Below, one piece after another: positions 16,884 through 45,878 of a stretch of 64,000 nucleotides of DNA (position 1 is the stretch's first letter; every line of letters begins with the position of its first letter). The position numbers and the translations under genes were made by a program. Where the stretch lies: the NCBI GenBank assembly GCA_963555825.3, contig CAUVXB020000001.1, forward strand, positions 1,280,001 through 1,344,000. The letters run 5' to 3'. This stretch comes from Alphaproteobacteria bacterium. GTDB taxonomy: Bacteria; Pseudomonadota; Alphaproteobacteria; JAAXGF01. Under the pieces are notes generated by a model. That model was not told the origin of the DNA, made no database searches, and worked only from the letters and a program-made list of their open reading frames with translations.

Positions 16884-17096
16884 CCGACATTCCCCAGATG
16901 ACATCCAAATTCGCGGGCGTCGTACTACCGATCCACCGCCATGGGAACTCCGTACCCTTCGTAGCCCTCCGATGCGGCGACTTTGGCGGGCTGATCAAGT
17001 TCGGAACGCCATTTGGCAAAGTATTCCACCATCTCGACGCACCTCTCCCATCGTTTTCACCTCTCCGCTGATTTCCTCGGCCTACGCCGGAACGGG
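16884..17096 (-). mobile_element. IS1380 right-end remnant cut by IS21
   Basis: CCGACATTCCCCAGATGACATCCAAATTCGCGG and CCTCGGCCTACGCCGGA shared with 28386-28600. Confidence 0.75.
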
Positions 17097-19666
17097 TGTC
17101 AATGGCGGAGCAAAAAGGGACCACCTCGGCGGTGTAAGAAGGGACCGCTTGGCGGCTGCGGGCTTGTCCCCGTAGTCCACGGGAGGGCCCCGCGCGCGAC
17201 GCGGCGTGCCCTCAACAGGCTGACGCGGCGGCGCGCGCGGGAGGGACCTGTGGGCCCACGGGGTCAAGCGTGGGCTGGGTGGTCGGTTCAGTTAGCAGTC
17301 GGGGTTTGACGCCTGCGGCTCTGGTTGAGCCTGTAGCTGTCACCGTTCATCTCGAGGATGTTGACGTGGTGGGTGAGGCGATCGAGGAGCGCGCCGGTGA
17401 GGCGCTCGGAGCCGAACACCTCGGTCCATTCGTCGAAGGGCAGATTGGTGGTGACCAGGGTCGAGCCCCGCTCGTAGCGTTGGCTGAACACCTCGAACAA
17501 CAGCTCGGCGCCGGTCTTCGACAGCGGCACGAAGCCGAGTTCGTCGACGATCAGAAGCTTGTAGGTGGCGAGCTTCTTCTGGAACCTCAGCAGCTGCTTG
17601 TCATCGCGGGCCTCGATGAGTTCGTGGACCAGCGCGGCGGCGGTGATGAAGCCGACCGAGAGGCCCTTCTGGCAGGCCGCCAGGCCGAGACCGAGGGCGA
17701 TGTGGGTCTTGCCGGTCCCACTGTTGCCGAGCGCGATGAGGTTCTCGCGGCGCTCGATGTACTCGCAGCGGGCCAGCTCCAGGACCAGCGCCTTGTTGAG
17801 CGAGGGGATGACCTTGAAGTCGAAGCTGTCGAGGCTCTTGACCACGGGGAAGCGCGCCGCCTTGATGCGCCGCTCGACCATGCGGCGCTCGCGGTCGATC
17901 AGCTCGAGCTCGGCGAGTCTCAACAGGTAGCGGACGTGATCGACGCCTTCCGAGGCGCACTGCCGGGCGATCTTGTCGTACTCGCGCAGGAAGGTCGGCA
18001 GCTTCAGCGTCTTGAGGTGGTGGGCGAGCAGCACTTGCGGTGTGTCGGTCATGCGCCGAGCCCCGACAGCAGGCTCATGTACGACTTGGCGGACGTCATC
18101 GCGACCCGGGCGCGCGGCAGATACGGATAGACGTCGAGGTTGAGCCTGGGCGGCCGCCGCTCGATGCGGCACAGTACCAGGTGCTTCACCGCATCAAAGC
18201 CGATTGCGCCGAGCCGCAGGGCGTCGCCGACCGCACCCTCGACCTCCTCGAGCCGGAAGGTCTCCAGTAGACGGAGCACCTGGACGTACTCGCGCTTGCC
18301 TGCCTTGCCCATACGAGCTTCGAGGAGCCGCCGCAGAGTGATGAAGGCCTCGGGCAGGTCCCAGCCCGCCAATGGCGCGGCCTGGTCGAGGGCGCCGATC
18401 TTCTGCTCGATCAAGGGCAGGTAATGCAGCGGGTCGAAGATCAGGTCCTCGCTGTCGTAGGACCGGCGGTGCCGGGCGATCACCTCGGCCCCGCAGCTGA
18501 TCACCACCTCATCGACGTAGCCCCGGATGAGCACCTCACGGTGGCCGTAGGCCACGGGCACGGAATAGTCGTTGCTGCGGTAACGCACCAGCGACAGCGA
18601 ACTCGCCCGTCCAGGGCGCTTATCGCAGGCATCATAGGGAGCAGGCGGCAATGGCAAGAGAACTTGACGATCCCGCTCGAGACGCTCGCCGATGGTCTCC
18701 TTGTGGCCCCGCAGCCGCGCCGCCTGGCGCCGGCGGCACTGTTCGGCGAGAGCATCGTTGAGGGCCGCGAAGCTCTCGGCACGCGGGACGGGGACCAGGA
18801 AGTTCCGCCGGATGAAGCCGACCAGTCCCTCGACCTTGCCCTTGTCGTTGCCCTTGCCCGGCCGGCCGAACCTGTCCTCGAACAGATAGTGGGACTGAAG
18901 CTCCGTGAAGACGCGCGTTCGCTGCCGCTTCCCATCGCCCAGGATCCGGGCAACCGCCAGCTTGGTGTTGTCGTACAGGATGGATCGGGGGACGCCGCCG
19001 AAGAAGGCAAACGCCGCGTTGTGGCCATCGCAGAATGCTTCGGTCGTCTCCGCCGGATAGGCCGCAACAAAGCAACCATCACTGTGGGGAAGGTCGAAGG
19101 CAAGGAAGTGGATCTTCCGTAACGCGCCGCCGATCACCGCCATCGCTTCGCCGAAGTCCGCCTGGGCGTGACCGGGGGAATGGGAGAGTGGCACGAACAC
19201 CTCACGCGACCGAAGCCCCTGCTCACGAACGTAGTCCTTCACGATGGTGTAGCCGCCCGTGAAACCGTACTCGTCCCGGAGGCGGTCGAAGATGCGCTTC
19301 GCAGTGTGCCGTTGCTTGCGGTGGCTGGTCCGATCGTCTTCCAAGATCCGATCGATGATTCCCGTGAACGGACCCAGCTTTGGCCGCCTCGGCGGCGCGC
19401 TTCGGCGATACCCTGGCGGCACCGAGAACGACAGCATCTTACGGACCGTCTTGCGGTCTACACCAAACACCCGCGAGGCCTCGCGGGTGCTCATCCCCTC
19501 GACATGACACGCCCGCCGAACCCGTGCGTACAACTCCACCCGATACATCCCCCCCGCCTTCCAGTCAGAGCAACCCTGACAGAAGGCTATACGCGGTCCC
19601 ATTTTGGTCCGCCGCAGCCGGATCGACCGGCCGCTTCAGTGGGGGATTATTGCTCTGCCGTTCTCA
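17097..19666 (-). mobile_element. IS21-family IS, copy 1 (istA 18049-19548, istB 17288-18052)
   Basis: TG...CA ends; IstA Q.DFG/YDN/KGKVE; IstB GNSGTGKTH and LLIVDELG; inverted copy of 33053-35622; no TSD. Confidence 0.95.
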
Positions 19667-19687
19667 AGAGATAGGGACATCGCCATT

Positions 19688-19787
19688 ATCTCTGCAGGAA
19701 ACCGATGTCGGCGGTAGCTGATCTTGTTCATAACAGGAAGCTACTCGCCACGCGCAGCTGACACCAGCCAGTTACCGTGACAGCACC
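19688..19787 (-). mobile_element. IS6 left-end fragment
   Basis: Matches the first ~100 bp of the IS6 at 24019. Confidence 0.85.
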
Positions 19788-24018: not shown

Positions 24019-24824
24019 GGTGCTGTCACGGTAACTGGCTGGTGTCAGCTGCGGGTGGCGAGTAGCTTCCTGTTATGAACAAGATCAGCTACCGCCGACA
24101 TCGGTTTCCTGCAGAGATAATCCAGCGCGCCGTCTGGCTGTGTTTCCGGTTTCCGCTCAGTTACCGCGATGTGGAGGATCTGCTCGCTGAACGTGGTGTC
24201 GATGTTTCTTACGAGACGATACGGCGCTGGGCTTTAAAGTTTGGGCAGGCCTATGCCCGAAAACTGAGACAATCACGCCCTCGACCAGACGACCGGTGGC
24301 ACCTTGATGAGGTGTTTTCCTCCATCAACGGAAAACGGATGTATCTATGGCGGGCGGTGGACAGCGAGGGTGAGGTGCTGGATATCCTGGTTCAGTCCCG
24401 GAGGAACAAGAAAGCAGCACTCAAGCTGATGCGCAAACTGCTCAAGAAGCAGGGGTATGCGCCGAATAAGGTGGTGACCGATAAACTGCCATCTTACGGG
24501 GCAGCATTGCGTGATCTCAACATGACGGGGAAACACGTTACCGGCGGACGGAGCAACAATCGGGCGGAGAATTCGCACCTGCCGGTTCGACAACGAGAAC
24601 GCAGGATGCAGGGCTTCAAGTCATCAGGATCGGCGCAAAGGTTTCTCTCCACCCACGCCGCCATCTACAACACCTTCAATGTCCAACGTCATCTGATCAC
24701 TCGCAAGACAATGAGCCAATTCCGCGGTGACGCGATGAACACGTGGCGGACCGTGACCGCTGCTGCTTGAGCCGCTCAGTTCAGACGTTCAACTGCGACC
24801 TGCCTTCGTTAAGTTGACAGCACC
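24019..24824 (+). mobile_element. IS6-family IS (transposase 24075-24770)
   Basis: GGTGCTGTCA...TGACAGCACC TIRs; WHLDE, LWRAVD and NNRAENSH motifs; 806 bp. Confidence 0.95.
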
Positions 24825-25454: not shown

Positions 25455-25752
25455 GGCGCTGCAAGCGTGTTCCTCAACCATTTCGATTGCCTCTGTCTGT
25501 TGGTTCCCGGCTCCGAGCCGGGCGGTGTCGGGTCCGAAGGTTTGTTTCCTCGGCCGAGATTGCGTCTTCCTTCTGGTCTTTCGATCTGTCCTGTCGTGCG
25601 CTTCGCATGCTTGGAGCGCTTCCGACCCTGTCCTGTTTTCCGATCCTTCGTCCGCCATTCCTGCCCTGTCGATCCCAGTTGCCTCTCACCCCGCGTCTAA
25701 TCGATTACCGTCCGCCTCTCACTTCACGCGTTCGCGGCGTCCGGCGCCAGTC

Positions 25753-27506
25753 ATTGGGTGTAGGTCTCAAACTGACCGTTCTTCATGCCCGCCTTCGGGT
25801 CCGGCGTCGTTCGAGCATCGGCTGCCCGAATGCGTCGGTGCTCCCTGTGCAAGCGCTGTCGACGGTGCACCCGCACCGCCGTTGTACCGCTGTGCGCCCG
25901 TGGTCTCGCGCGCGGGCTTGGTTCTCCGCCCCCGCTTGACCGGCGCAGCGCTTCCTTGCCGTTCTCAGCTCGCCCCACAACGCGTTCTTCGCTGCTCCGT
26001 CGGTGAGTCCTTGCGCTTTCAGCGCGAGCCATCGCAGCGCGCGAGCGCGCAGGACTTGTCCTGCGTTCACGTCGGCGTTGGCCTTGTGCTCGCACGCCGT
26101 GCATTCGAACCGGCGTTTGTCGCGACTCTTTGCGTCGACGTGTCCGCATGCGGCACACGTCGTGCTGGAGTCCATCGCGGGAAGCTTCAGCACCGTGCCG
26201 CCACGCGCTTCGAGCGCTGCCTTCAGCGTGTCTTGCGTGAATCCCCACAGCGCTGAGCGGATGCTGCGGTTGAGCCCTCTCTTCGCTGCAACGCCCGCCC
26301 ACGCCCGTCCCCGGGCGCTTGCGCCCATGCCTGTGATGTTGAGGGATTCGAGACCGAGGACGTCAAACATCGCGGCGAAGTCTTTCGCCGCCTTGCGAAT
26401 CGCATCGCGGTCGCGTGACCGCATTGCCGCTTTCTCGCTACGGAGTTGTTCCAAGTGTTCATGCCATTGTCGCGAACCTTGGACGCACTTGTTCATCGCC
26501 CGTTGTGCGTCGAGGACGACGTCCATGCCCACTGTGTGGTCTGGCAACGTGATCGTTCGCCCGTTGTGCATGGTCAGGGTGTCGGCACACCCCATGTCGG
26601 CGCCGGCGACGAGAGGTGTCTGCCTTCGCCGTTTCGTTCGGGGTACGACATCGACGAGCACTGCCAGGTGGACTTCGACTCGCGTGCGCCCCCGACTCCC
26701 GTGTTTCACGCACACCTTCGCTGCGCGAAGGCGTGCTGCTTCGGGTAGTGGATTGTTCGCAACGACTTCGACTTCTCCCAGACCGACCAACCCGACGGTG
26801 TTCGCATCCACCCGCCGCGGCGGTGTGTCCCACACCACCGCGCAGCGTCCCTTCGTCTTCCTGCGTCGGAGCAGTTGTGTGCGCGCACCGTCGCCGGAGC
26901 GCTCGTCGCGCCACGTCGCTGCACTCTTTGGTGGTGCGCGGTTTTCCTTGACCGCTTTGCGCTTGTCCTTGACCGCTTTGCGCTTGTCCTCGATGTCGAG
27001 TCCGTCCCAGGCTCCAGCGTCCCAGTCCAGATGCTTTGACATCCACTTCTTCCAGGAGGCGTCTTCTCCGAGCACCCGCGCGACGCGCGCTCTCGTCGCG
27101 TCCTCATGAAGCTTCAGCGCGGTTCTCGCCTGTCCAACCGCAGGACGTGCGAGCACCACCGGCACGTTGCCCATCCACGGGGTCTCGCTTCGCCACTCGG
27201 TGAGCCGCCCGGACAGCCCGTCGGGATGCGCTGGACTCTTCTGCTTTGCCGGCACGCTTCCGCCTTGCGGCGCGATGTCGGCGATCGTCCGGTTGTAGAC
27301 CCCGCGCTGAACGTGCCGGCAACGCGTGAGCGCGGCGTCGAGCGCCAGCGTCCACTTTGCCCGGTAAATGCGGGTGCGCAGCACGGTTGGGGGGGCTCGA
27401 CACTCTGTCACCGCTTTGCCCTCACCTTCCCCTGTTTTTCCTTCAGGCTTCACGCTTTCAGTCAGTTGCATTGTCCCAACTTGTCAGTTCGAGAGCTACA
27501 CCCAAT
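25753..27506 (-). mobile_element. TIR-bounded TnpB-only element
   Basis: 24-bp inverted repeats at 25753-25776 and 27483-27506 (22/24 identical) tightly enclose tnpB. Confidence 0.75.
25783..27471 (-). CDS. tnpB: TnpB-like RNA-guided endonuclease, up to 562 aa
   Basis: RuvC-I GADMG, RuvC-II LESL.I.GM, Zn ribbon CAACG...CTAC, RuvC-III NADVNA. Confidence 0.85.
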   Translation of the reverse strand: MQLTESVKPEGKTGEGEGKAVTECRAPPTVLRTRIYRAKWTLALDAALTRCRHVQRGVYNRTIADIAPQGGSVPAKQKSPAHPDGLSGRLTEWRSETPWMGNVPVVLARPAVGQARTALKLHEDATRARVARVLGEDASWKKWMSKHLDWDAGAWDGLDIEDKRKAVKDKRKAVKENRAPPKSAATWRDERSGDGARTQLLRRRKTKGRCAVVWDTPPRRVDANTVGLVGLGEVEVVANNPLPEAARLRAAKVCVKHGSRGRTRVEVHLAVLVDVVPRTKRRRQTPLVAGADMGCADTLTMHNGRTITLPDHTVGMDVVLDAQRAMNKCVQGSRQWHEHLEQLRSEKAAMRSRDRDAIRKAAKDFAAMFDVLGLESLNITGMGASARGRAWAGVAAKRGLNRSIRSALWGFTQDTLKAALEARGGTVLKLPAMDSSTTCAACGHVDAKSRDKRRFECTACEHKANADVNAGQVLRARALRWLALKAQGLTDGAAKNALWGELRTARKRCAGQAGAENQARARDHGRTAVQRRCGCTVDSACTGSTDAFGQPMLERRRTRRRA

Positions 27507-27594: not shown

Positions 27595-28380
27595 TTACTT
27601 GTCGCCTTTTTCAAGGTCGAGCTCATTCCAAGTCATCAATCGAACTTCGTCACGGCGCTGGCCGGTTAGAAAAAGCATACGAACGAGGCTACGTGCCGTT
27701 GGTGAGCAGGTGCTTGTGGCATCCCAAATTGCACGGATTTCATCGCGGGAAAGAAAGCGGTCCCGGCTGCGCTCCTTGAACCGCTTTTTCTTTCCCCGAT
27801 TGATGGAAGCGACCGGATTGACGTCTATCCATTCACGGTCCTCGACGGCCCAATTGCAGAACGCTTTGATCTGGCTGACGACGCGATTGACCTGGACCGT
27901 CAGCCCTTCGCCAGCGAGATCGTCCATAAGCTCTAGAACGTGTGCTCTGGTCAGATCCTGCAATGGAATGTTGCCAACCCGGCTAAGGACGTGTTTCTCG
28001 AATAGGCGATCGGTCTGTCGCCAGGACTTTTGGTGCTCCTTGCAATGCTCCTCGATGTAGGCTCGCGCAGCCTGCTCCACGGTGCGCTGTCGGCGTTGAT
28101 CCGTTTCCGCCTTCGCTTCGGGGTCAATGTCATGCTTGGCCAGATTTCCAATCTCAAGGGACTTTCACCGCGCTTCACTCAGCGTTATTGCGGGAAAGGT
28201 TCCGAGGCCGATGCGCTGGCGCTGGCCATTAAACCTATACCGACAATCCCAGGATTTTGCCGTCTCGGAAACGCGGAGCGTTAGGTTCCAGCCGTTCGGG
28301 TTGGTGTCGGCGTATTCAGCTCGCTCGCCACTGGCTGCCTTTGCTGTCTGACAGAACCGGTCCGTGAGATTCTTTTTCAT
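27595..28380 (-). pseudogene. Tyrosine integrase, frameshifted and truncated
   Basis: Arm-binding N-terminus (LTD.F...L.LRVS...Y.F.G....LG.FP..TL.EAR), NP..., R.R.L...E and TGQRR.E; C-terminal catalytic part missing. Confidence 0.8.
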
Positions 28381-28385
28381 CTGAA

Positions 28386-30045
28386 CCGACATTCCCCAGA
28401 TGACATCCAAATTCGCGGAAATCGTACCACGGCCCCATCTCCAAGGGAACTCTGTTCCCATTGCAGCGATCCGATGACATGATTTTGGTAATCGGCCAGC
28501 GCGTGGAAGGCCATTTGGTCGTTTCTCTTGCCATCCAGACACACCTCTCGTGTCGCAATCTCCTTGCCGTCGATTCCCTCGGCCTACGCCGGAGCGGGTC
28601 TTCGTCGTAGATCATCAATCAGGCTCAAGATTTTCTGGAACAAGCTTCTTGGGACTGCAACCTCGGCCAATTGAAATGTGACGTACCGGCCATGGCTGAC
28701 AACTTTCGCACCGATCTTGACCAGCTTCTCCCTCAGCGTCGTCAGCGACCATTGCTCCACGGCATCGGGCAACGCCAGGGTACGCATGAAGTTGCCGAGG
28801 TTATAGGCGAGTGCATGCAGCTGGAGCCGGACGGCATTGTTGCGTAACGAACGGCATGACAGCCGCGTCCACTTGATGGCGTTCTTGCCTTCCTTGATCC
28901 ATTGCTCGGCAGTGCCGCGCTGATTGTAGAACGCAACAACCCGCTCGGCAGGACGGCTCAGGTTGGTGACGCTTGAGCGGTGAAACCGATCAAGGCCGAC
29001 GCGGGGATACAGTTCCCCTGAGTGCCACTCCACCTTGGCGACGACCCGGCGGGGCTCCGTCCAGCTACCGGCCCGATAGCTGAAGTTCGCGTAATACCGA
29101 CGAACTTCCTTCGGCGGCCGACCGACGGGGCGCTTGAGCAGGTGCGCGATGCTGTCGTGCAGCACCTTGTTGGCCGGAAGCCGGATGGCGTACTTGAAGC
29201 CTTCCGCTTCCAGAAACTCATAAACCTCGGGCGAGGCGAAGGCGGCGTCACCACGGAAATAACGCCGGAGTGTCTTGTTCCGGTATCGAGCGACCACCGG
29301 GTCCAACACATCGCGCCATTCATGGGCGCTGTGCACGTTGCCCGGACGCAGGGCGCAACGCTCCAGATCGCCGAACTGGTTGAACACGAACAGCGGGTGA
29401 TAGCACGTGCAGCCGAAGTGACCGTTGTAGGCCGTGCCCTCCTGGTCACCGTAGGTCGGGCTGACGGAGCTGTCCATGTCGAGCACGATAATCTTCGGCG
29501 GCTTGCGCTCGTTAACCTGGTCGATCCAGATGCCCAAAAGGTCAGCGAGCGCGGCGAGGTTGTCATTGGTGGCGAGTAACTCCGTCTCGAACCGGCCCAT
29601 CTGGCTGGTCGATGCGCCGCCGCGCTCGACAGCCCTGCCGCCGACGATCCACCGCATCGCAGGATCGCGCCCCAGCCGGTCGGCGTCGTTCACGTCCTCG
29701 TACCCGGCGAGACGACCATAGACGGATTGGCGAAGGAGACCGATGATGCCGTGCCAACCGTTCTTGCCGGTCCGGCTGTCAGCAATAACGTCACCGGCCA
29801 GCGTGGTCAGGCCGAGGGCTTCGTCCAGTTCACGATAGGCGAGCAGACCAGCGTCTGACGTGATCCGCGAACCGTGGAACTCGAACTTCAGTCTTCGGTC
29901 GAAAAACGCCCGCAGAAGCCCCCGATCCGACTCACCCTCCAGGTTCCGCATTCGACCCACCCTCCGTCTGATCTAATCCACTGATTCTTATACAGGAATC
30001 AGACGGAAACCGCATCAGATGGATCGGTCACTTGGGGAATGCGGG
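28386..30045 (-). mobile_element. IS1380-family IS (transposase 28584-29960)
   Basis: TIRs CCGACATTCCCCAGATGAC / GTCACTTGGGGAATGCGGG; TSDAG, LD.DS, RGD..F and Y..RG..E..IKE.K motifs. Confidence 0.92.
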
Positions 30046-32866: not shown

Positions 32867-35800
32867 GGGTGCGAGTCTCGCATGGCAGTGATGTCTGCGG
32901 CTTGGTTCGTTGAGTTCAGGCAGCGATTGCCATGGCTGCTGCACGTGGACTGATGTTGTCGTTGGCCGGTGTGTCGGTTGCGCTGATCAGGGCCTTCCAT
33001 GCCCGCTCGAAGCGGCCGGATTTGATCAGGGCGCGGAAGGTCAGAACAGCCTTGAGAACGGCAGAGCAATAATCCCCCACTGAAGCGGCCGGTCGATCCG
33101 GCTGCGGCGGACCAAAATGGGACCGCGTATAGCCTTCTGTCAGGGTTGCTCTGACTGGAAGGCGGGGGGGATGTATCGGGTGGAGTTGTACGCACGGGTT
33201 CGGCGGGCGTGTCATGTCGAGGGGATGAGCACCCGCGAGGCCTCGCGGGTGTTTGGTGTAGACCGCAAGACGGTCCGTAAGATGCTGTCGTTCTCGGTGC
33301 CGCCAGGGTATCGCCGAAGCGCGCCGCCGAGGCGGCCAAAGCTGGGTCCGTTCACGGGAATCATCGATCGGATCTTGGAAGACGATCGGACCAGCCACCG
33401 CAAGCAACGGCACACTGCGAAGCGCATCTTCGACCGCCTCCGGGACGAGTACGGTTTCACGGGCGGCTACACCATCGTGAAGGACTACGTTCGTGAGCAG
33501 GGGCTTCGGTCGCGTGAGGTGTTCGTGCCACTCTCCCATTCCCCCGGTCACGCCCAGGCGGACTTCGGCGAAGCGATGGCGGTGATCGGCGGCGCGTTAC
33601 GGAAGATCCACTTCCTTGCCTTCGACCTTCCCCACAGTGATGGTTGCTTTGTTGCGGCCTATCCGGCGGAGACGACCGAAGCATTCTGCGATGGCCACAA
33701 CGCGGCGTTTGCCTTCTTCGGCGGCGTCCCCCGATCCATCCTGTACGACAACACCAAGCTGGCGGTTGCCCGGATCCTGGGCGATGGGAAGCGGCAGCGA
33801 ACGCGCGTCTTCACGGAGCTTCAGTCCCACTATCTGTTCGAGGACAGGTTCGGCCGGCCGGGCAAGGGCAACGACAAGGGCAAGGTCGAGGGACTGGTCG
33901 GCTTCATCCGGCGGAACTTCCTGGTCCCCGTCCCGCGTGCCGAGAGCTTCGCGGCCCTCAACGATGCTCTCGCCGAACAGTGCCGCCGGCGCCAGGCGGC
34001 GCGGCTGCGGGGCCACAAGGAGACCATCGGCGAGCGTCTCGAGCGGGATCGTCAAGTTCTCTTGCCATTGCCGCCTGCTCCCTATGATGCCTGCGATAAG
34101 CGCCCTGGACGGGCGAGTTCGCTGTCGCTGGTGCGTTACCGCAGCAACGACTATTCCGTGCCCGTGGCCTACGGCCACCGTGAGGTGCTCATCCGGGGCT
34201 ACGTCGATGAGGTGGTGATCAGCTGCGGGGCCGAGGTGATCGCCCGGCACCGCCGGTCCTACGACAGCGAGGACCTGATCTTCGACCCGCTGCATTACCT
34301 GCCCTTGATCGAGCAGAAGATCGGCGCCCTCGACCAGGCCGCGCCATTGGCGGGCTGGGACCTGCCCGAGGCCTTCATCACTCTGCGGCGGCTCCTCGAA
34401 GCTCGTATGGGCAAGGCAGGCAAGCGCGAGTACGTCCAGGTGCTCCGTCTACTGGAGACCTTCCGGCTCGAGGAGGTCGAGGGTGCGGTCGGCGACGCCC
34501 TGCGGCTCGGCGCAATCGGCTTTGATGCGGTGAAGCACCTGGTACTGTGCCGCATCGAGCGGCGGCCGCCCAGGCTCAACCTCGACGTCTATCCGTATCT
34601 GCCGCGCGCCCGGGTCGCGATGACGTCCGCCAAGTCGTACATGAGCCTGCTGTCGGGGCTCGGCGCATGACCGACACACCGCAAGTGCTGCTCGCCCACC
34701 ACCTCAAGACGCTGAAGCTGCCGACCTTCCTGCGCGAGTACGACAAGATCGCCCGGCAGTGCGCCTCGGAAGGCGTCGATCACGTCCGCTACCTGTTGAG
34801 ACTCGCCGAGCTCGAGCTGATCGACCGCGAGCGCCGCATGGTCGAGCGGCGCATCAAGGCGGCGCGCTTCCCCGTGGTCAAGAGCCTCGACAGCTTCGAC
34901 TTCAAGGTCATCCCCTCGCTCAACAAGGCGCTGGTCCTGGAGCTGGCCCGCTGCGAGTACATCGAGCGCCGCGAGAACCTCATCGCGCTCGGCAACAGTG
35001 GGACCGGCAAGACCCACATCGCCCTCGGTCTCGGCCTGGCGGCCTGCCAGAAGGGCCTCTCGGTCGGCTTCATCACCGCCGCCGCGCTGGTCCACGAACT
35101 CATCGAGGCCCGCGATGACAAGCAGCTGCTGAGGTTCCAGAAGAAGCTCGCCACCTACAAGCTTCTGATCGTCGACGAACTCGGCTTCGTGCCGCTGTCG
35201 AAGACCGGCGCCGAGCTGTTGTTCGAGGTGTTCAGCCAACGCTACGAGCGGGGCTCGACCCTGGTCACCACCAATCTGCCCTTCGACGAATGGACCGAGG
35301 TGTTCGGCTCCGAGCGCCTCACCGGCGCGCTCCTCGATCGCCTCACCCACCACGTCAACATCCTCGAGATGAACGGTGACAGCTACAGGCTCAACCAGAG
35401 CCGCAGGCGTCAAACCCCGACTGCTAACTGAACCGACCACCCAGCCCACGCTTGACCCCGTGGGCCCACAGGTCCCTCCCGCGCGCGCCGCCGCGTCAGC
35501 CTGTTGAGGGCACGCCGCGTCGCGCGCGGGGCCCTCCCGTGGACTACGGGGACAAGCCCGCAGCCGCCAAGCGGTCCCTTCTTACACCGCCGAGGTGGTC
35601 CCTTTTTGCTCCGCCATTGACACAGCCTGTCCGCCGACGATCCGCCAGCGCATGCCGGAGCGCTTCATGCGCTGTGTCACCAGGGTCTTGTTGGCAGCTT
35701 CGACCACGCCTGAGCCGATGGCGATGCCCTCTTCCTTCAGGGCGTGGTAGCGCATGCGATGGCGATGCTTGCGGAAGAAGGCGAGTTCCCGCTCGGTCTC

Positions 35801-36686
35801 GGCCCGGTCCGGCGCAGCGGCGGCATCGCGAAGGTGGCGCAGCGCCCGGATCACCTTGGCGACGCCACGGGGATCGTGACGGAGGATCTCGCGGTACTTC
35901 TCGAACCAGCCGGGCGCCACGGCATGGTCGGACGCGGTTTGCAGATGTTCGCAAGCATGCCAGAAGTCGATCACCTCGGTTTCGGGCGACAGGGTCTCCA
36001 GGAAGGTCCAGTTGTCGGCGGCGCCATCGGCGATAGCGACGATCCCGATCTCGGGGCGTGCTCGCCTGATGTGTGCGACTTCGCTTGCAAGCTGCGCCTT
36101 CAGCGTGAGCTTGCCGCTCTCCGGCATGCGGCCGAGATAGAGGGTCTTCAGGCGCTTGCCCTCGGCGTCGTGGAAGGAGACCGTGCCGCAGGCAGCCTCG
36201 CGCCAGGAGGCCTTGGCGCGACCGTCCTCGCCGGGTCTCAGCGGCACCATGACGCCGTCGAGGGAGACCGAGGCGGTGGTCGCGTCCTGCGGTATGCCCT
36301 CGGCCTCACGGATGCTGCCCAGCGTCTCCGGGCCGAGGCTCTCCCAGCATTCGTGCATGCTCAGGGTCAGGCGCTGCAGGGTGCTCACCGACGGCGTCAT
36401 GGCGCCGGTCTTCGCAAAGAACGCCGCCGCTTCCCGGGCCGTGCAGTGACCCATCATCAGCAGACCGAGCTCGGCCGCCGGCCGCGTCAGGTAATCGTCG
36501 ACGAGGCCCAGGCTCTCGTCGACCGGCACCGGCGATGCCCCGCTCGCGCCGCTGCGGTAACGCGCTCGCCGGTAGGTGTGCCTCCCATTTATCTCATCCG
36601 GGGTGCATCAAGAACGCCGACCGGTCCGCCGGCACTGGTGATGGCACCATCTTCGCTGTGAGGCGGGCATAGTCATCTTCGGAAAC
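32867..36686 (-). mobile_element. ISKra4-family IS, degraded and interrupted by IS21
   Basis: ADGA..NW, DFWHA.EHL and IGSG.VEAA.K..V..RMK.SGMRW motifs; C-terminus resumes at 32916-33052; left end lost. Confidence 0.8.
33053..35622 (+). mobile_element. IS21-family IS, copy 2 (istA 33171-34670, istB 34667-35431)
   Basis: Same proteins as copy 1; 6-bp TSD CAGCCT. Confidence 0.95.
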
Positions 36687-37492
36687 GGTGCTGTCAACTT
36701 AACGAAGGCAGGTCGCAGTTGAACGTCTGAACTGAGCGGCTCAAGCAGCAGCGGTCACGGTCCGCCACGTGTTCATCGCGTCACCGCGGAATTGGCGCAT
36801 TGTCTTGCGAGTGATCAGATGACGTTGGACATTGAAGGTGTTGTAGATGGCGGCGTGGGTGGAGAGAAACCTTTGCGCCGATCCTGATGACTTGAAGCCC
36901 TGCATCCTGCGTTCTCGTTGTCGAACCGGCAGGTGCGAATTCTCCGCCCGATTGTTGCTCCGTCCGCCGGTAACGTGTTTCCCCGTCATGTTGAGATCAC
37001 GCAATGCTGCCCCGTAAGATGGCAGTTTATCGGTCACCACCTTATTCGGCGCATACCCCTGCTTCTTGAGCAGTTTGCGCATCAGCTTGAGTGCTGCTTT
37101 CTTGTTCCTCCGGGACTGAACCAGGATATCCAGCACCTCACCCTCGCTGTCCACCGCCCGCCATAGATACATCCGTTTTCCGTTGATGGAGGAAAACACC
37201 TCATCAAGGTGCCACCGGTCGTCTGGTCGAGGGCGTGATTGTCTCAGTTTTCGGGCATAGGCCTGCCCAAACTTTAAAGCCCAGCGCCGTATCGTCTCGT
37301 AAGAAACATCGACACCACGTTCAGCGAGCAGATCCTCCACATCGCGGTAACTGAGCGGAAACCGGAAACACAGCCAGACGGCGCGCTGGATTATCTCTGC
37401 AGGAAACCGATGTCGGCGGTAGCTGATCTTGTTCATAACAGGAAGCTACTCGCCACCCGCAGCTGACACCAGCCAGTTACCGTGACAGCACC
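36687..37492 (-). mobile_element. IS6-family IS, copy 2 (transposase 36741-37436)
   Basis: Inverted copy of 24019-24824; one amino-acid difference (S/R). Confidence 0.95.
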
Positions 37493-37721: not shown

Positions 37722-40385
37722 TTGCCATGCGCTATCGTCGTGCGCATGGTGGTTCTGGACGAGGATTTTGGCACCAACCTGACGCTGGTCGAGGGTAATG
37801 GCGGGGTCCGGTTGTCCCCCGTGTCGGTGCCGGAGCACGCGCCGCGCGACTGGCGGTCACAGTGTGAGCGGGAACGGGCGCGGGCGGACGCGGCCGAAGC
37901 GCGCGCGGAAGAGCTGCGCTGGGCGGAAGTGGCCGCCCGCAGCGATGGCGGTTCGTGGAAGTCTCGGTTCAAGGCCTGCCGGCGCAGGCTGAGTGAGGCC
38001 GTCGAAGAGACGAAGGAAGCCCGCCGCACGGCAAGGGACGTGCCGTCCTTGCAGGCGGAAGTGGCGCGCCTGGAGACGCTCCTTTCTGAAGCCGGCATCG
38101 CGTCGGCCTTCGATACGGCCGGGGCGCTGCGCAAGGAGAACGCCCGGCTGCGCAAGGCCCTGGCGGCATCGAAGGCCCGAGAGGGCGCGACCGGGCCGTG
38201 GCCCGCTCCGCCCCGGCGGCGCACCGTCCTGGAGCCTTCCCCGGACCAGAAGGAGACCGTCAGGTCGCTTCGCACGGAACTCCGCCGGCTCGACAAGGAG
38301 GTGGTCCGGCGGGACAAGGAGAACGCCCGGCTGAACACGCGCCTCGACCAGGAGAAGGAGAGGACGGAGCGCATCAGGGAGACCGCGAAGAAGCTGTCCA
38401 GCGAGTCCCTTCGGCTCCACCGGGAGGTGAGGATACTGGGCGACGCCGAGGCCCGCGCCCGGTCGCTGTCCGACGAGGTTTTCTGGCTGCGCCATGCCCT
38501 GGAGGTGTCCAAAGCCGGTAAGGAGAAGTTGAAGGCCCGGCTCGCCAAGCTTCGGGCGGCCGGGGCGACGCTGTCGAAGCTGCCGTCCGACGAGGCTGCT
38601 CAACTGCGCGCGGCGTTGAGGCGGTCGCGGCGCCAGAAGACGACGATCGAGGCGCTGCGCAAGGGCAACGCCCGTCTGCGCAGGACCATGCGGAAGTTGG
38701 AGACCCGGAAAGCGGCGCTGGCGGTTCAGCCTGCCAAGCTTCGCGCGATCAGGAAGGCACTCGAGTCCGAGCTTGCCGGGCTTCGGGCGGTCAGGAAGAC
38801 GTTGTCGAAGTCGCTGTCCGTTGCAGACGCCGATCTCCGCAGGGCTCTGCGAAGGTCGCGGCGCCAGAAGGCTACGATCAAGTCGCTGTCCCGGGAGAAC
38901 GCCCGCCTGCGCAAGGGCGCGAAGACGTCGCGGAACCGGATCGAGACGCTGGAAGTCCAGCTTGAGAGGCTTCGTGCGACCGGGGCGGTGCTGTCGAGGG
39001 CGCTCTACGGCCGCAAGAGCGAGCAGCAGGACAAGCCGGGCTCGGAACACAAGCGCGGCCAGCAGCGCGGCGCGCCCGGCCACGGCCGCACCCAGCGGCC
39101 CGGGCTCGATGAGCGCACCGAAGAGCACAACCCGCCGCCGGATGCGTGCGTCTGCGGCCGGTGCGGGCAGCCCTATGCGCCGAACGGCGCCGAGGAATCC
39201 ACCCTCGTCGAGATCGAGGTCAAGGCCTACAAGCGCGTGATCCGCCGTCCGCGCTGGCGCCGGACCTGCGAGTGCGCGTCGTCGCCCATGGAAGTGTCGG
39301 CGCCCCCGGTGCCGCGGCTGTTCCCCAGGACGCTCTACGGGACCAGCTTCTGGGCACGCTTCCTGTTCGAGCACTGTGCCTGCTTCCGCCCCGTGCACCG
39401 CGTTGCCGCGTGGATGTCCGCCCAAGGGCTGACGGTCTCGCCGGGGACGCTGGCCGACAGCCTGAAGCGGTTCGTGCCGCTGCTCGAGCCGCTGGCCGAG
39501 GCGATCCTTGCGCACCAGAACAAGGCGGCGCTGCGCCATGCCGACGAGACCAGCTGGCGCGTCCAGGAACTTCGCGGGGAAGACCGCTCGAGCCGCGCCT
39601 GGCTGTGGGTCTCGGTCAGCAATGACGCGGTCTCTTTCCATATCGACCCCTCGCGCAGCGCCGAGGCGGCGCAGAAGCTGTTCGGCGACGCTCTCCTCGA
39701 CACGGTCATCGTCTGCGATCGCTATAGCGCCTACAAGCGACTCGCTCGCCTTCGCGAGGGCAAGGTGACCCTTGCATTCTGTTGGTCCCATATGCGCCGC
39801 GATTTTGTCGAGTGCGCGGCCGGCCAGGTGAGACTGACGGACTGGTGCCAGGGATGGATCGAGCGGATCGCGTCGATCTACCGCCTGAACGAGGCGAGGT
39901 TGGCTCATTACGACCCCGTGATCAAGCGCCAGACGCCGGCGTTCGACGCGGCGCAGGGCGCGTTGAAGGCGGCGCTCGACGGCCTGTTCGCGGAGGCCGC
40001 CCGGGAGTTGGTCGGCCTGCCGGACCAGGCGCGCCAGGGCAGGGCGCTGCGCTCGCTGCTGAACCATCGCGAAGGGCTGAGCGTGTTCGTCGACCGCCCG
40101 CAGGTGCCTCTGGATAACAATCGCGCCGAAAGATTGTTACGAGGTCCGGCCATAGGGCGACGGCTGTCGTTCGGTTCCGACAGCGAGGACGGCGCCAGGT
40201 TCACGGCGATCATGTACTCGGTGGTGGGCACGCTCTCGATGAATGGCATCGACATCCTGAGCTGGCTGGACACGTGGCTCGCAGCGTGCGCGGAGAACGA
40301 TCGCAAACCACCGGACGACCTGTCGCCGTGGCTGCCATGGTCGATGAGCGAGGAGCGCAGGCGCGAACTCATGGCGCCGGCGTGA
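37722..40385 (+). CDS. IS66 transposase with a ~420-aa coiled-coil N-terminal extension
   Basis: G.KSE, C..CG, HADET.W, D.Y.AY, CW.H.RR.F and DNN.AER motifs. Confidence 0.88.
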   Translation: MPCAIVVRMVVLDEDFGTNLTLVEGNGGVRLSPVSVPEHAPRDWRSQCERERARADAAEARAEELRWAEVAARSDGGSWKSRFKACRRRLSEAVEETKEARRTARDVPSLQAEVARLETLLSEAGIASAFDTAGALRKENARLRKALAASKAREGATGPWPAPPRRRTVLEPSPDQKETVRSLRTELRRLDKEVVRRDKENARLNTRLDQEKERTERIRETAKKLSSESLRLHREVRILGDAEARARSLSDEVFWLRHALEVSKAGKEKLKARLAKLRAAGATLSKLPSDEAAQLRAALRRSRRQKTTIEALRKGNARLRRTMRKLETRKAALAVQPAKLRAIRKALESELAGLRAVRKTLSKSLSVADADLRRALRRSRRQKATIKSLSRENARLRKGAKTSRNRIETLEVQLERLRATGAVLSRALYGRKSEQQDKPGSEHKRGQQRGAPGHGRTQRPGLDERTEEHNPPPDACVCGRCGQPYAPNGAEESTLVEIEVKAYKRVIRRPRWRRTCECASSPMEVSAPPVPRLFPRTLYGTSFWARFLFEHCACFRPVHRVAAWMSAQGLTVSPGTLADSLKRFVPLLEPLAEAILAHQNKAALRHADETSWRVQELRGEDRSSRAWLWVSVSNDAVSFHIDPSRSAEAAQKLFGDALLDTVIVCDRYSAYKRLARLREGKVTLAFCWSHMRRDFVECAAGQVRLTDWCQGWIERIASIYRLNEARLAHYDPVIKRQTPAFDAAQGALKAALDGLFAEAARELVGLPDQARQGRALRSLLNHREGLSVFVDRPQVPLDNNRAERLLRGPAIGRRLSFGSDSEDGARFTAIMYSVVGTLSMNGIDILSWLDTWLAACAENDRKPPDDLSPWLPWSMSEERRRELMAPA

Positions 40386-45179: not shown

Positions 45180-45212
45180 GCCGCCGTGGCGGCGGCGGTC
45201 TAAGCTGTGCCC

Positions 45213-45878
45213 ATGGCAAGATCCGCCCGACTCGTCGTTCCCGGCTGCCCGCACCACGTGACCCAGCGGGGCAACCGTGGCCAGAAGGTGTTCTTCGACG
45301 ACGCCGATTATCGCGACTATATCGCGCTGATGGCGGCGTCCTGCGCCAAGGCGGGCACCGCGGTCTGGGCCTACTGCCTGATGCCCAACCACGTGCATAT
45401 GATCTTGGTGCCGTCGCACGAGGACGGCCTGCGCGCGGCGGTCAGCGACACGCATCGGCGCTATGCGCGGCACGTCAACGCCCGCGAGGACTGCGGCGGG
45501 CATCTGTGGCAGGGCCGCTTCGCCTCGTTCCCGATGGACGAGGCGCATCTCTTGGCCTGCGCCCGCTACGTCGAGCTCAACCCGGTTCGCGCCAAACTCC
45601 ACCGCAGTCCGCGCGCCTGGCCATGGTCGAGCGCCAGGGCGCATCTCGGCGGCAAGGACGATGCGCTGGTTACCGTCGCGCCGCTGCTCGAGCGCGTCGG
45701 CGACTGGAAGGCATTCCTCGCCGGCGGCCTCGACGACGCGGCGCTGGACGCCATCCGCGGCCGCGAGCGCAGCGGGCACCCGCTCGGCGACAACGCCTTC
45801 TTCAGGAAGCTCAAGCGGCGCTTCGGCCGCGACGTCAAGCCGGCCAAACGCGGCCGCCCACCCCTCCCTAAAACGTAA
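45213..45878 (+). CDS. REP-associated tyrosine transposase (RAYT, HUH Y1)
   Basis: M.R..R......HHVTQRGN, AYCLMPNHVH, G.LWQGRF, RYVELNP and W.WSS motifs. Confidence 0.9.
   Translation: MARSARLVVPGCPHHVTQRGNRGQKVFFDDADYRDYIALMAASCAKAGTAVWAYCLMPNHVHMILVPSHEDGLRAAVSDTHRRYARHVNAREDCGGHLWQGRFASFPMDEAHLLACARYVELNPVRAKLHRSPRAWPWSSARAHLGGKDDALVTVAPLLERVGDWKAFLAGGLDDAALDAIRGRERSGHPLGDNAFFRKLKRRFGRDVKPAKRGRPPLPKT

Follow-up and report, generated by a model that had tools for sequence, protein, structure and literature searches.

The lone tnpB gene carried by the window (the whole stretch of DNA analyzed here, 64,000 nucleotides from a sponge-associated bacterium) has, in our estimation, about an even chance of being the relic of a non-autonomous, OMEGA-type transposon with terminal inverted repeats (TIRs), that is, a now immobile member of a family moved in trans. 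In the proposed mechanism, a lone tnpB and a nucleotide-conserved 3′ stretch, which probably templates an omega-RNA, would be enclosed by TIRs with a length of about 22 bp. The long-TnpB family to which the gene belongs would be mobilized in trans by a TIR-recognizing transposase, as argued from the symmetrical ends, and this transposase would most likely be of the DDE type. The best local candidate helper, as judged by end similarity, would be an ISKra4-like IS, while the tnpB copy of the window would now be immobile, being the only copy, occupying one fixed site throughout the host samples, devoid of a TSD and decaying. The features of the element and its immediate surroundings are as follows.

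25753..25776 (unstranded): left arm of the 22/24 inverted repeat, which in the orientation of tnpB is the right end of the element (RE, 3′ end)
27483..27506 (unstranded): right arm of the inverted repeat, which is the left end (LE, 5′ end), the ATG following 11 nt downstream
25783..27471 (minus strand): tnpB open reading frame of 562 aa, with RuvC residues D292, E375 and D467 and the zinc ribbon intact
26938..26979 (minus strand): 21-nt tandem duplication inside tnpB, which adds the seven residues KRKAVKD/KRKAVKE
25767..25964 (minus strand): alternative frame whose translation corresponds to the consensus C-terminal tail of homologues, conservation being at the nucleotide level regardless of frame
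25753 to about 25965: candidate omega-RNA scaffold region, the last ~200 nt being conserved irrespective of the frame
25733..25752 (minus strand): flank immediately beyond the right end on its 3′ side, a putative guide template if the element behaves like known OMEGA elements

An inverted repeat around the TnpB ORF had been reported in the initial annotation and is borne out by the present analysis, as the two arms, of 24 nt each, are complementary at 22 of 24 positions (92%) and the flank-repeat score of the locus is 18, compared to a maximum of 11 among 20 shuffles. The chance of a 22/24 match at both ends of the ORF is roughly 1e-8, a rough estimate of our own made without a tool. The reported spacing, 6 nt between the left arm and the tnpB stop codon and 11 nt between the right arm and the ATG, was likewise found to be correct, as were the reported absence of a TnpA inside the element and of a TSD: no further ORF with a transposase domain was found within it, and its flanks showed no direct repeats (minimum length 3 nt) under any of the three end definitions tried. 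The right terminus that is conserved in the family reaches position 25754. A scan of the tnpB locus for promoters returned 0 sites. A truncated integrase (27595-28164) was considered as a gene cut by the element and was rejected, as it has no continuation to the left of 25753 and is separated from the element by a gap of 88 nt.

When 40 ordinary TnpB loci were scored against shuffles in the same manner, a clearly supra-random flanking inverted repeat was apparent at only one of them, L059 (score 21, shuffle maximum 12), with loci L011 and L106 lying 1 to 2 points over their shuffle maxima. L059, located in a Rhodothermales MAG (G411), encodes a 432-aa solo TnpB within a 27-nt TIR. Its anatomy resembles that of the element of the window, with a lone TnpB in some 1.4 kb of element and a stop codon falling within the right repeat arm, whereas it differs in the ordinary length of its TnpB, in the unrelated sequence of its repeat and in the 6-bp direct repeats which flank both copies in its genome. 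The two TnpBs share 36% identity, across residues 355-488 only.

In terms of sequence scores, the protein falls into a sharply separate clade of long metagenomic TnpBs (about 43 proteins of about 550 aa), whose members attain 261 to 1248 bits, the next protein reaching 90 bits; an E value of 1e-30 or lower was reached by 37 out of 1.84 billion representatives. Read-through of the right end was observed in 13 of the approximately 160 clade proteins examined (P0013, P0014, P0043, P0135, P0139, P0144, P0153, P0267, P0306, P0323, P0326, P0327 and P0329), and all 13 tails can be back-translated into the outer portion of the repeat arm before diverging, giving 10 distinct flanks after the right end among the homologues, or 11 when the copy of the window is included. 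Two proteins were left out of this count: P0334, in which the regex match at position 20 lies inside the normal N-terminus, and P0162, an ambiguous relative with 31% identity. Because the 13 read-through tails diverge into 10 flanks, the long-TnpB family, judged from these protein sequences, is mobile or has been so in the past, with a right boundary at the outer limit of the repeat. The proposed coincidence of the repeats with copy boundaries is, therefore, upheld for the right end, whereas the left end is represented solely by P0015, the one protein with an N-terminal read-through, which fits the inner arm at 11 of 17 determinable bases and does not fit at the outermost bases; this evidence is rated as weak since it was found by a scan of three frames.

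Among the read-through proteins, P0306 resembles one copy inserted into another, and P0267 represents an internal-deletion derivative in which the right end is kept. Of 11 right flanks, 10 have an A immediately outside the GGGTG/CACCC core, an observation which may reflect either element sequence or a site preference. A search for short N-terminal fragments gave two matches, which held no left-end information, and longer, fused forms of TnpB were not found, the latter being weak evidence. Clade members were absent from the genome contigs when a protein was used as the query (with an alignment as the query, the best of 90 matches showed 40% identity) and from the metagenome contigs (best segment identity of 48% over about 120 residues). 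No homologues were found among viral contigs, and none of 2142 plasmid records covered 80% or more of the TnpB query by tblastn. When at most two mismatches were tolerated, the 21-nt repeat pattern produced two single matches in 400 genomes of the class; this corresponds to chance level, since a reversed-pattern control also gave two.

Further copies, sought as a check put forward in the initial annotation, did not emerge from the genome. No second tnpB copy was found in the genome by DNA, protein or HMM search, and a 16-mer of the repeat occurs in the 6.04-Mb genome without mismatch at the two arm sites only, with two single matches being added if up to two mismatches are permitted. The genomes of 60 relatives yielded three weak partial matches to TnpB, and neither G018, which harbors the ISKra4-like IS (15 matches, up to 99% identity), nor G003 (IS at 67%) produced a TnpB match. 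The suggested check for empty sites was similarly negative: contigs from four runs of four studies cross both boundaries with identical flanks, and neither an empty site (joint 25752->27507) nor an alternative flank was present among the joints listed for these runs, bearing in mind that contigs drop rare variants. The element occurs in 16 DNA-type runs, which belong to several studies. At least 4 of 15 listed near-identical cluster members (P0284, P0285, P0290 and P0291), together with P0125, carry a frameshift near residue 310, and in several other clusters tnpB is found in pieces on one contig; these frameshifted members and fragmented clusters argue against purifying selection.

The nature of the transposase which would have moved the family was approached through the ISKra4-like IS, a copy of which is located in the window.

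32867..33052 (unstranded): initial 186 bp of a copy of the ISKra4-like IS, whose terminus was compared with the tnpB repeat, the copy being split by an IS21
35622..36577 (unstranded): positions about 180-1136 of the same ISKra4-like copy, on the far side of the IS21, with an IS6 copy further on

This 1654-bp IS is clearly active, since the genome contains 35 full-length copies of it with at least 99.8% identity, with 8-bp TSDs in the same genome. Its transposase scores 170.7 bits against NF033572, under the cut-off of 205, for which reason ISKra4-like is the accurate label. ISKra4-family ends begin with GGG in ISfinder, and the associated duplications are of 8-9 bp. The claimed match of the repeat core to an ISKra4 end at 32867 (10/13) is real, subject to this change of label: between the two arms and the ISKra4-like ends, 11/13 and 10/13 positions agree, compared to 5-7/13 for the ends of the other IS types (IS21, IS6, IS1380 and an IS with a 420-aa ORF), making it the sole one of the five compared types with a match of 10-11/13. 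For random genomic 24-mers, the probability of at least 11 matches is 2e-4 and that of at least 10 is 2.3e-3, values which include no correction for the choice of offset or of IS and which reach the order of 0.01 when a choice among about 10-20 IS ends is allowed for. The 13-mer pattern occurs 78 times in the genome, 75 of these occurrences being within ISKra4-like copies, and G018 carries a variant of the IS, with 88% identity, that retains the same terminal motif.

That the element is a non-autonomous ISKra4-family derivative, moved by the transposase of the 35-copy IS of this genome, is a possibility which we entertain only tentatively. The terminal match confined to this IS, its evident activity with 8-bp TSDs and the retained motif of the G018 variant speak in its favor, whereas the tnpB element has remained unamplified beside 35 copies of its presumed helper and is not flanked by an 8-bp TSD. 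Moreover, the family-conserved terminus is 2 nt longer than the GGG terminus of the IS, and no match is apparent beyond position 13, the inner repeat being unrelated to that of the IS, while G018 and G003 hold the IS without a TnpB and the end match was drawn from about 10-20 IS ends available. A link to ISKra4 is plausible and unproven, and the wider proposition that the long-TnpB clade rides TIR elements with ISKra4-type ends, the copy of the window being a stranded non-autonomous member beside an exploding ISKra4-like IS, appears doubtful. The initial annotation had proposed precisely such an element moved in trans by an ISKra4-type enzyme; the TnpA-less TnpB within TIRs, the right boundary and the core match stand, whereas the single copy, its unvarying flanks in the four runs, its frameshift in part of the population, the missing TSD and the two other genomes with the IS and no TnpB do not accord with it. 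The suggested function of TnpB in homing or retention can only be inferred.

An origin of a different kind, in which the gene would represent a TnpB-only element of the IS200/IS605 (IS1341-group) or IS607 type, moved by a Y1 or serine TnpA, and the inverted repeat would be a by-product, for example of the end of the omega-RNA scaffold being copied at the left end, is considered unlikely. It would account for the lack of a TSD, as in IS605 and IS607 (PMC13565253), and is in keeping with the description, in the available part of PMC10691335, of most solo TnpBs as lying within IS200/605-like ends, with the general TnpB models that constitute the best HMM matches of the protein and with the A outside the core in the right flanks. 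Nevertheless, these families are characterized in the available parts of PMC13565253 and PMC10691335 by asymmetric ends without TIRs, whereas the tnpB arms match at 22/24; when folded as single-stranded DNA, the two ends gave z values of 0.19 (left, no hairpin signal) and -1.16 (right, only a weak signal), and no direct repeat common to both ends was found. Furthermore, no IS200/605-type or IS607-type TnpA was detected above cut-off in the genome. Its three PF01797 (Y1) matches are RAYT-like ORFs of 223-254 aa, none of them of IS200 type, and the Y1 ORF within the window scores 67.8 bits against REP_Tyr_transpos, under the cut-off of 80. NF033518 (IS607 TnpA) gave 0 matches over cut-off, the best reaching 35.2 bits with ORFs of 591-605 aa; this lack of a serine-recombinase TnpA over cut-off and the symmetric ends speak against the IS607 family. 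The IS1341 group resembles the element in comprising TnpB only, in lacking a TSD, in its conserved right end beside variable flanks and in its likely omega-RNA over the 3′ end of the gene. It differs in that the group, as described in the available part of PMC13565253, possesses asymmetric ends with subterminal hairpins and without TIRs, whereas the element of the window has a 22/24 TIR, at most a weak hairpin signal and a genome without a cognate Y1 TnpA. It is also conceivable, albeit highly improbable, that an immobilized TnpB was taken over by the host (as a TldR-type or other exapted TnpB) and that the repeats are fossils. The single copy, found at one site throughout the four runs, and its presence in the 16 DNA-type runs would suit such a scenario, against which stand the intact catalytic triad, unlike that of most exapted forms covered in the available text of PMC10691335, the frameshifts and fragmented clusters, and family flanks that vary from copy to copy.

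The preferred reading, that of a relic of a TIR transposon moved in trans, is not without precedent. The layout of a TnpB between inverted repeats is unusual and already described in bacteria, the present case being a new example and not a new kind. As far as the available part of Altae-Tran et al. (2023, PNAS; PMC10691335) extends, six DDE-associated TnpB branches (DDE-1 to DDE-6) with inverted terminal repeats are reported, together with solo TnpBs that have the same ends as the DDE-associated ones and for which trans mobilization is proposed. The novelty initially attributed to a TIR-bounded bacterial TnpB was, therefore, overstated, and the view that association with TIRs is mostly a matter of eukaryotic Fanzors is outdated. 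The element shares with these branches a TnpB inside inverted terminal repeats and a tnpB 3′ end near one of them (6 nt, the criterion being 250 bp; PMC10691335), and differs in having no DDE gene inside, no TSD and a best partner match of 10-11/13; the long-TnpB clade may already belong to one of them. The DDE partner families of TnpB given in the available texts are IS630 (PMC10691335) and, according to a review, ISL2, IS630 and IS1031 (PMC13565253), and no report linking ISKra4 to TnpB was found in the literature searched.

If the TIR reading is true, the clade would constitute another switch of TnpB from Y1 or serine partners to a TIR-using transposase, would support the notion that the benefit of the nuclease is transferable between transposon types (PMC10691335, available part) and would parallel, on the bacterial side, the occurrence of Fanzors in TIR elements. 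Should the ends truly be of ISKra4 type, it would represent a further, independently acquired bacterial DDE-TnpB partnership and a natural system in which to study the use of an RNA-guided nuclease to a cut-and-paste TIR transposon. The locus of the window, as a decaying single copy, has little to teach on mechanism, and the practical value is modest, consisting of a set of about 40 long TnpBs, whose right end is sharply conserved, for a possible screen of nucleases suited to genome editing.

The conserved stretch at the 3′ end of tnpB (25767..25964) is also found in another frame in P0017 and P0040. As 0 Rfam matches were obtained in this stretch and the 3′ 268 nt considered as RNA gave no fold-energy signal (z -0.54), the omega-RNA is counted as inferred, being probably encoded here, and likewise its guide, the position of which 3′ of the right end follows established TnpB biology (review PMC13565253, available part). 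RNA contigs of X17 span parts of the tnpB element and its flank, although RNA contigs cannot show a transcript.

The 562-aa protein scores 46.1 bits against PF07282 (cut-off 26.3), and falls under the cut-off for both NF040570 guided_TnpB (86.9 bits, cut-off 100) and PF01385 (20.2 bits, cut-off 30.5). The intact RuvC acidic motifs and zinc ribbon noted previously were confirmed in a 26-sequence alignment of the clade, in which D292 is invariant, E375 and D467 are present in at least 90% of sequences and C442, C457 and C460 of the CxxC...CxxC zinc ribbon are conserved, with the first Cys replaced by Asp in some homologues. An AlphaFold model (mean pLDDT 77.6, pTM 0.47) found its best Foldseek match in ISDra2 TnpB (8h1j, E value 1.5e-14, TM score 0.61 on the target), with ISDra2 TnpB and ISFba1 TnpB at the top, followed by Cas12f, and mimivirus Fanzor2 in 14th place. 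The modeled protein shares the RuvC and zinc-finger core of ISDra2 TnpB (8h1j, 8exa and 8bf8), although it is about 150 residues longer, mostly through a helical region before RuvC-I, and about 15% identical; ISDra2 itself belongs to the IS605 type and carries a Y1 TnpA. Eukaryotic Fanzors, according to the available part of Bao and Jurka (2013; PMC3627910), similarly include TnpB-family nucleases as passengers of TIR transposons, whereas the protein of the window is bacterial and its predicted fold is nearer to TnpB and Cas12f. Residues 512-562 are disordered in the model (pLDDT <50) and frame-shifted relative to the homologues, and the KRKAVKD/KRKAVKE insert (alignment columns 201-206) is particular to this copy, being missing from 25 of the 25 other aligned homologues.

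The proposed mobile element (25753-27506) comprises the following features.

25753-25776, left arm of the inverted repeat, at the 3' end of tnpB
25783-27471, minus strand, tnpB, 562 aa, the single long ORF of the element
27483-27506, right arm of the inverted repeat

The repeat search returned a 24-nt inverted repeat around the tnpB ORF in which 22/24 positions match; 6 nt separate the left arm from the stop codon of the ORF, and 11 nt separate the right arm from its ATG. The local inverted-match score between the flanks of the ORF was 18, and the highest value among 20 shuffles was 11; the repeat exceeds chance. Because a single ORF is bracketed by this repeat, with no second gene found within 25753-27506 and no direct repeat found flanking the element, the initial annotation was correct in describing a TIR-enclosed TnpB without TnpA.

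The same flank-score test was applied to 40 ordinary TnpB loci from public genomes and metagenomes, among which only one, locus L059 of a Rhodothermales MAG, lay clearly above its shuffles (21 versus 12), two further loci exceeding theirs by just 1 to 2 points; repeats of such strength are therefore rare around tnpB. L059 encodes a lone TnpB of 432 aa enclosed by 27-nt inverted repeats, and 6-bp direct repeats flank both copies of this element in that genome (L059, 2098-3513; L221, about 1441-2845). In this single comparator, strong flanking repeats mark a TIR/TSD-type transposon, and L059 represents a clean public example of a solo TnpB of this type.

The product of the window ORF is a divergent TnpB, which scores over the cut-off of Pfam model PF07282 (46.1 bits), under that of PF01385, and below that of the NCBIfam model guided_TnpB (86.9 bits; cut-off, 100). 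Across the 26 clade members aligned, D292 never varies, E375 and D467 almost never do, and the cysteines of the zinc ribbon are likewise conserved. The AlphaFold model built from this alignment (mean pLDDT, 77.6; pTM, 0.47), in which residues 1-24 and 512-562 are disordered, is closest in fold to ISDra2 TnpB and ISFba1 TnpB, followed by Cas12f. A 21-nt tandem duplication within tnpB (26938-26979) adds seven residues that are absent from each of the other 25 aligned homologues.

The clade includes about 43 relatives of similar length (37 to 72% identity), all from ENA metagenome assemblies, below which the bit score drops from 261 to 90; 37 representatives reached an E value of ≤1e-30 in the full HMMER scan. 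The ends of the clade were deduced from protein sequences, through read-through extensions, and not from homologue DNA. The C-terminal 50 residues of the window TnpB depart from the family consensus, a neighbouring frame (25767-25964) encodes the family-consensus tail, and another frame is also used at this stretch by homologues P0017 and P0040, so that the 3' stretch of tnpB is conserved at the nucleotide level, independently of frame. Such conservation is the pattern expected where an omega-RNA, here putative, overlaps the gene end.

Read-through of the right end was observed in 13 of about 160 clade proteins inspected, all of which, in three different frames, back-translate to the outer portion of the repeat arm, beyond which they give 10 different continuations. 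The family therefore occupies many different sites, with its right boundary at the outer end of the repeat or, more precisely, 1 nt short of that end. In P0306, a right-end read-through peptide runs directly into a second tnpB at its codon 7, which suggests a nested insertion, one copy within another; P0267, in which residues of about 86-128 are joined straight to the 3' tail, is an internal-deletion derivative. The sole left-end case, P0015, has an upstream extension which fits the inner arm (11/17 determinable bases), not the outermost bases, and is weak evidence for the left end.

In the available text of Altae-Tran et al. (2023; PMC10691335), six TnpB branches are associated with DDE transposases, all with inverted terminal repeats, the tnpB 3' end in these branches usually lies ≤250 bp from a transposon end, and solo TnpBs with nearly identical ends are also reported, interpreted there as mobilized in trans. 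The available sections of a 2026 review (PMC13565253) name ISL2, IS630, and IS1031 as DDE partners and report neither TIRs nor TSDs in IS200/IS605 and IS607. One of these published DDE-associated branches may already include the window clade. The element, a TnpB gene between TIRs that lacks TnpA and belongs to a mobile family, is most plausibly of the already known TIR/DDE-associated kind; what is new here is limited to the TnpB clade and perhaps also the partner family.

No IS200-type Y1 TnpA was found in the genome, whose three Y1 matches are RAYT-like proteins (223 to 254 aa), no IS607 TnpA scored above cut-off there, and no hairpin signal was detected at the ends of the tnpB element. One of the three Y1 (HUH) genes is located in the window (45207-45878, plus strand, 223 aa), its best model, REP-associated tyrosine transposase, being below cut-off. 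Insertion sequences abound in the genome, among them an ISKra4-like IS of 1654 bp, present in 35 full-length copies (≥99.8% identity) and making 8-bp target duplications; a copy of it, split by an IS21, does start at 32867, where an ISKra4-type end had been annotated. The tnpB repeat core is identical to the two termini of this IS at 10/13 and 11/13 positions (P of about 2e-4 for random genomic 24-mers reaching ≥11/13), whereas the ends of IS21, IS6, IS1380, and a fifth high-copy IS match at 5 to 7 only, so the resemblance is specific, though short. The terminal motif is kept in a variant of the IS, 88% identical, from another genome. A genome from another family of the same class (G018:C1; loci L192 and L195) likewise carries the ISKra4-like IS, with 99% protein identity, which suggests recent horizontal spread.

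Mobilization of the tnpB element in trans through an ISKra4-type transposase, as proposed in the initial annotation, is a reasonable but unproven lead. Against such mobilization stand the single copy of the element in the genome, the occurrence of its repeat nowhere else there, and the absence of a target-site duplication; furthermore, the family-conserved end exceeds the IS terminus by 2 nt, and the two repeats show no relation in their inner halves. Contigs from four runs, each of a different study, cross both boundaries with the same flanks, with no empty-site joint among the joints listed for these runs, and the ISKra4-like IS (up to 99% identical) occurs in two other genomes without a match to the window TnpB. 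No ISKra4-TnpB link was seen among the papers listed by a full-text literature search, one of which mentions the ISKra4 family only in an IS census. The earlier interpretation is supported in part, with the ISKra4 connection retained as a lead only.

Also against mobilization, frameshifts near residue 310 are frequent among near-identical copies from other assemblies: at least 4 of the 15 members listed for a 21-member cluster carry one, as does P0125, and other clade protein clusters are likewise in pieces. The best reading of the window copy is a stranded relic undergoing decay, neither active nor a domesticated gene. Contigs of two DNA runs break at about 26525-26560, and several near-identical proteins from other assemblies have a frameshift at the corresponding residue (about 310), which hints at a polymorphic indel inactivating tnpB in part of the population.

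On its upstream side, tnpB is immediately preceded by a frameshifted, C-terminally truncated P4-type tyrosine integrase (27595-28611), likewise on the minus strand, which looks like an island remnant. Some TnpBs are described with integrases upstream, in the available text of PMC10691335, and are catalytically dead, whereas the nuclease residues of the window TnpB are intact. Two inverted, 100% identical IS21-family copies of 2573 bp (17096-19668 and 33051-35623), encoding IstA (517 aa) and IstB, enclose 13.4 kb with TRAP-transporter genes, the tnpB element, an IS1380, and a glycine-betaine/choline ABC system, which is a composite-transposon layout. Two IS6-family copies of 806 bp (24019-24824 and 36687-37492) are likewise inverted and 100% identical, and a 103-nt fragment of this IS is found at 19685-19787. 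Four diverged copies of a 65-nt unit (65 to 74% identity; 38115-38938) are located inside a long ORF (37722-40385, 887 aa), where they could correspond to the repeats of a coiled-coil protein.
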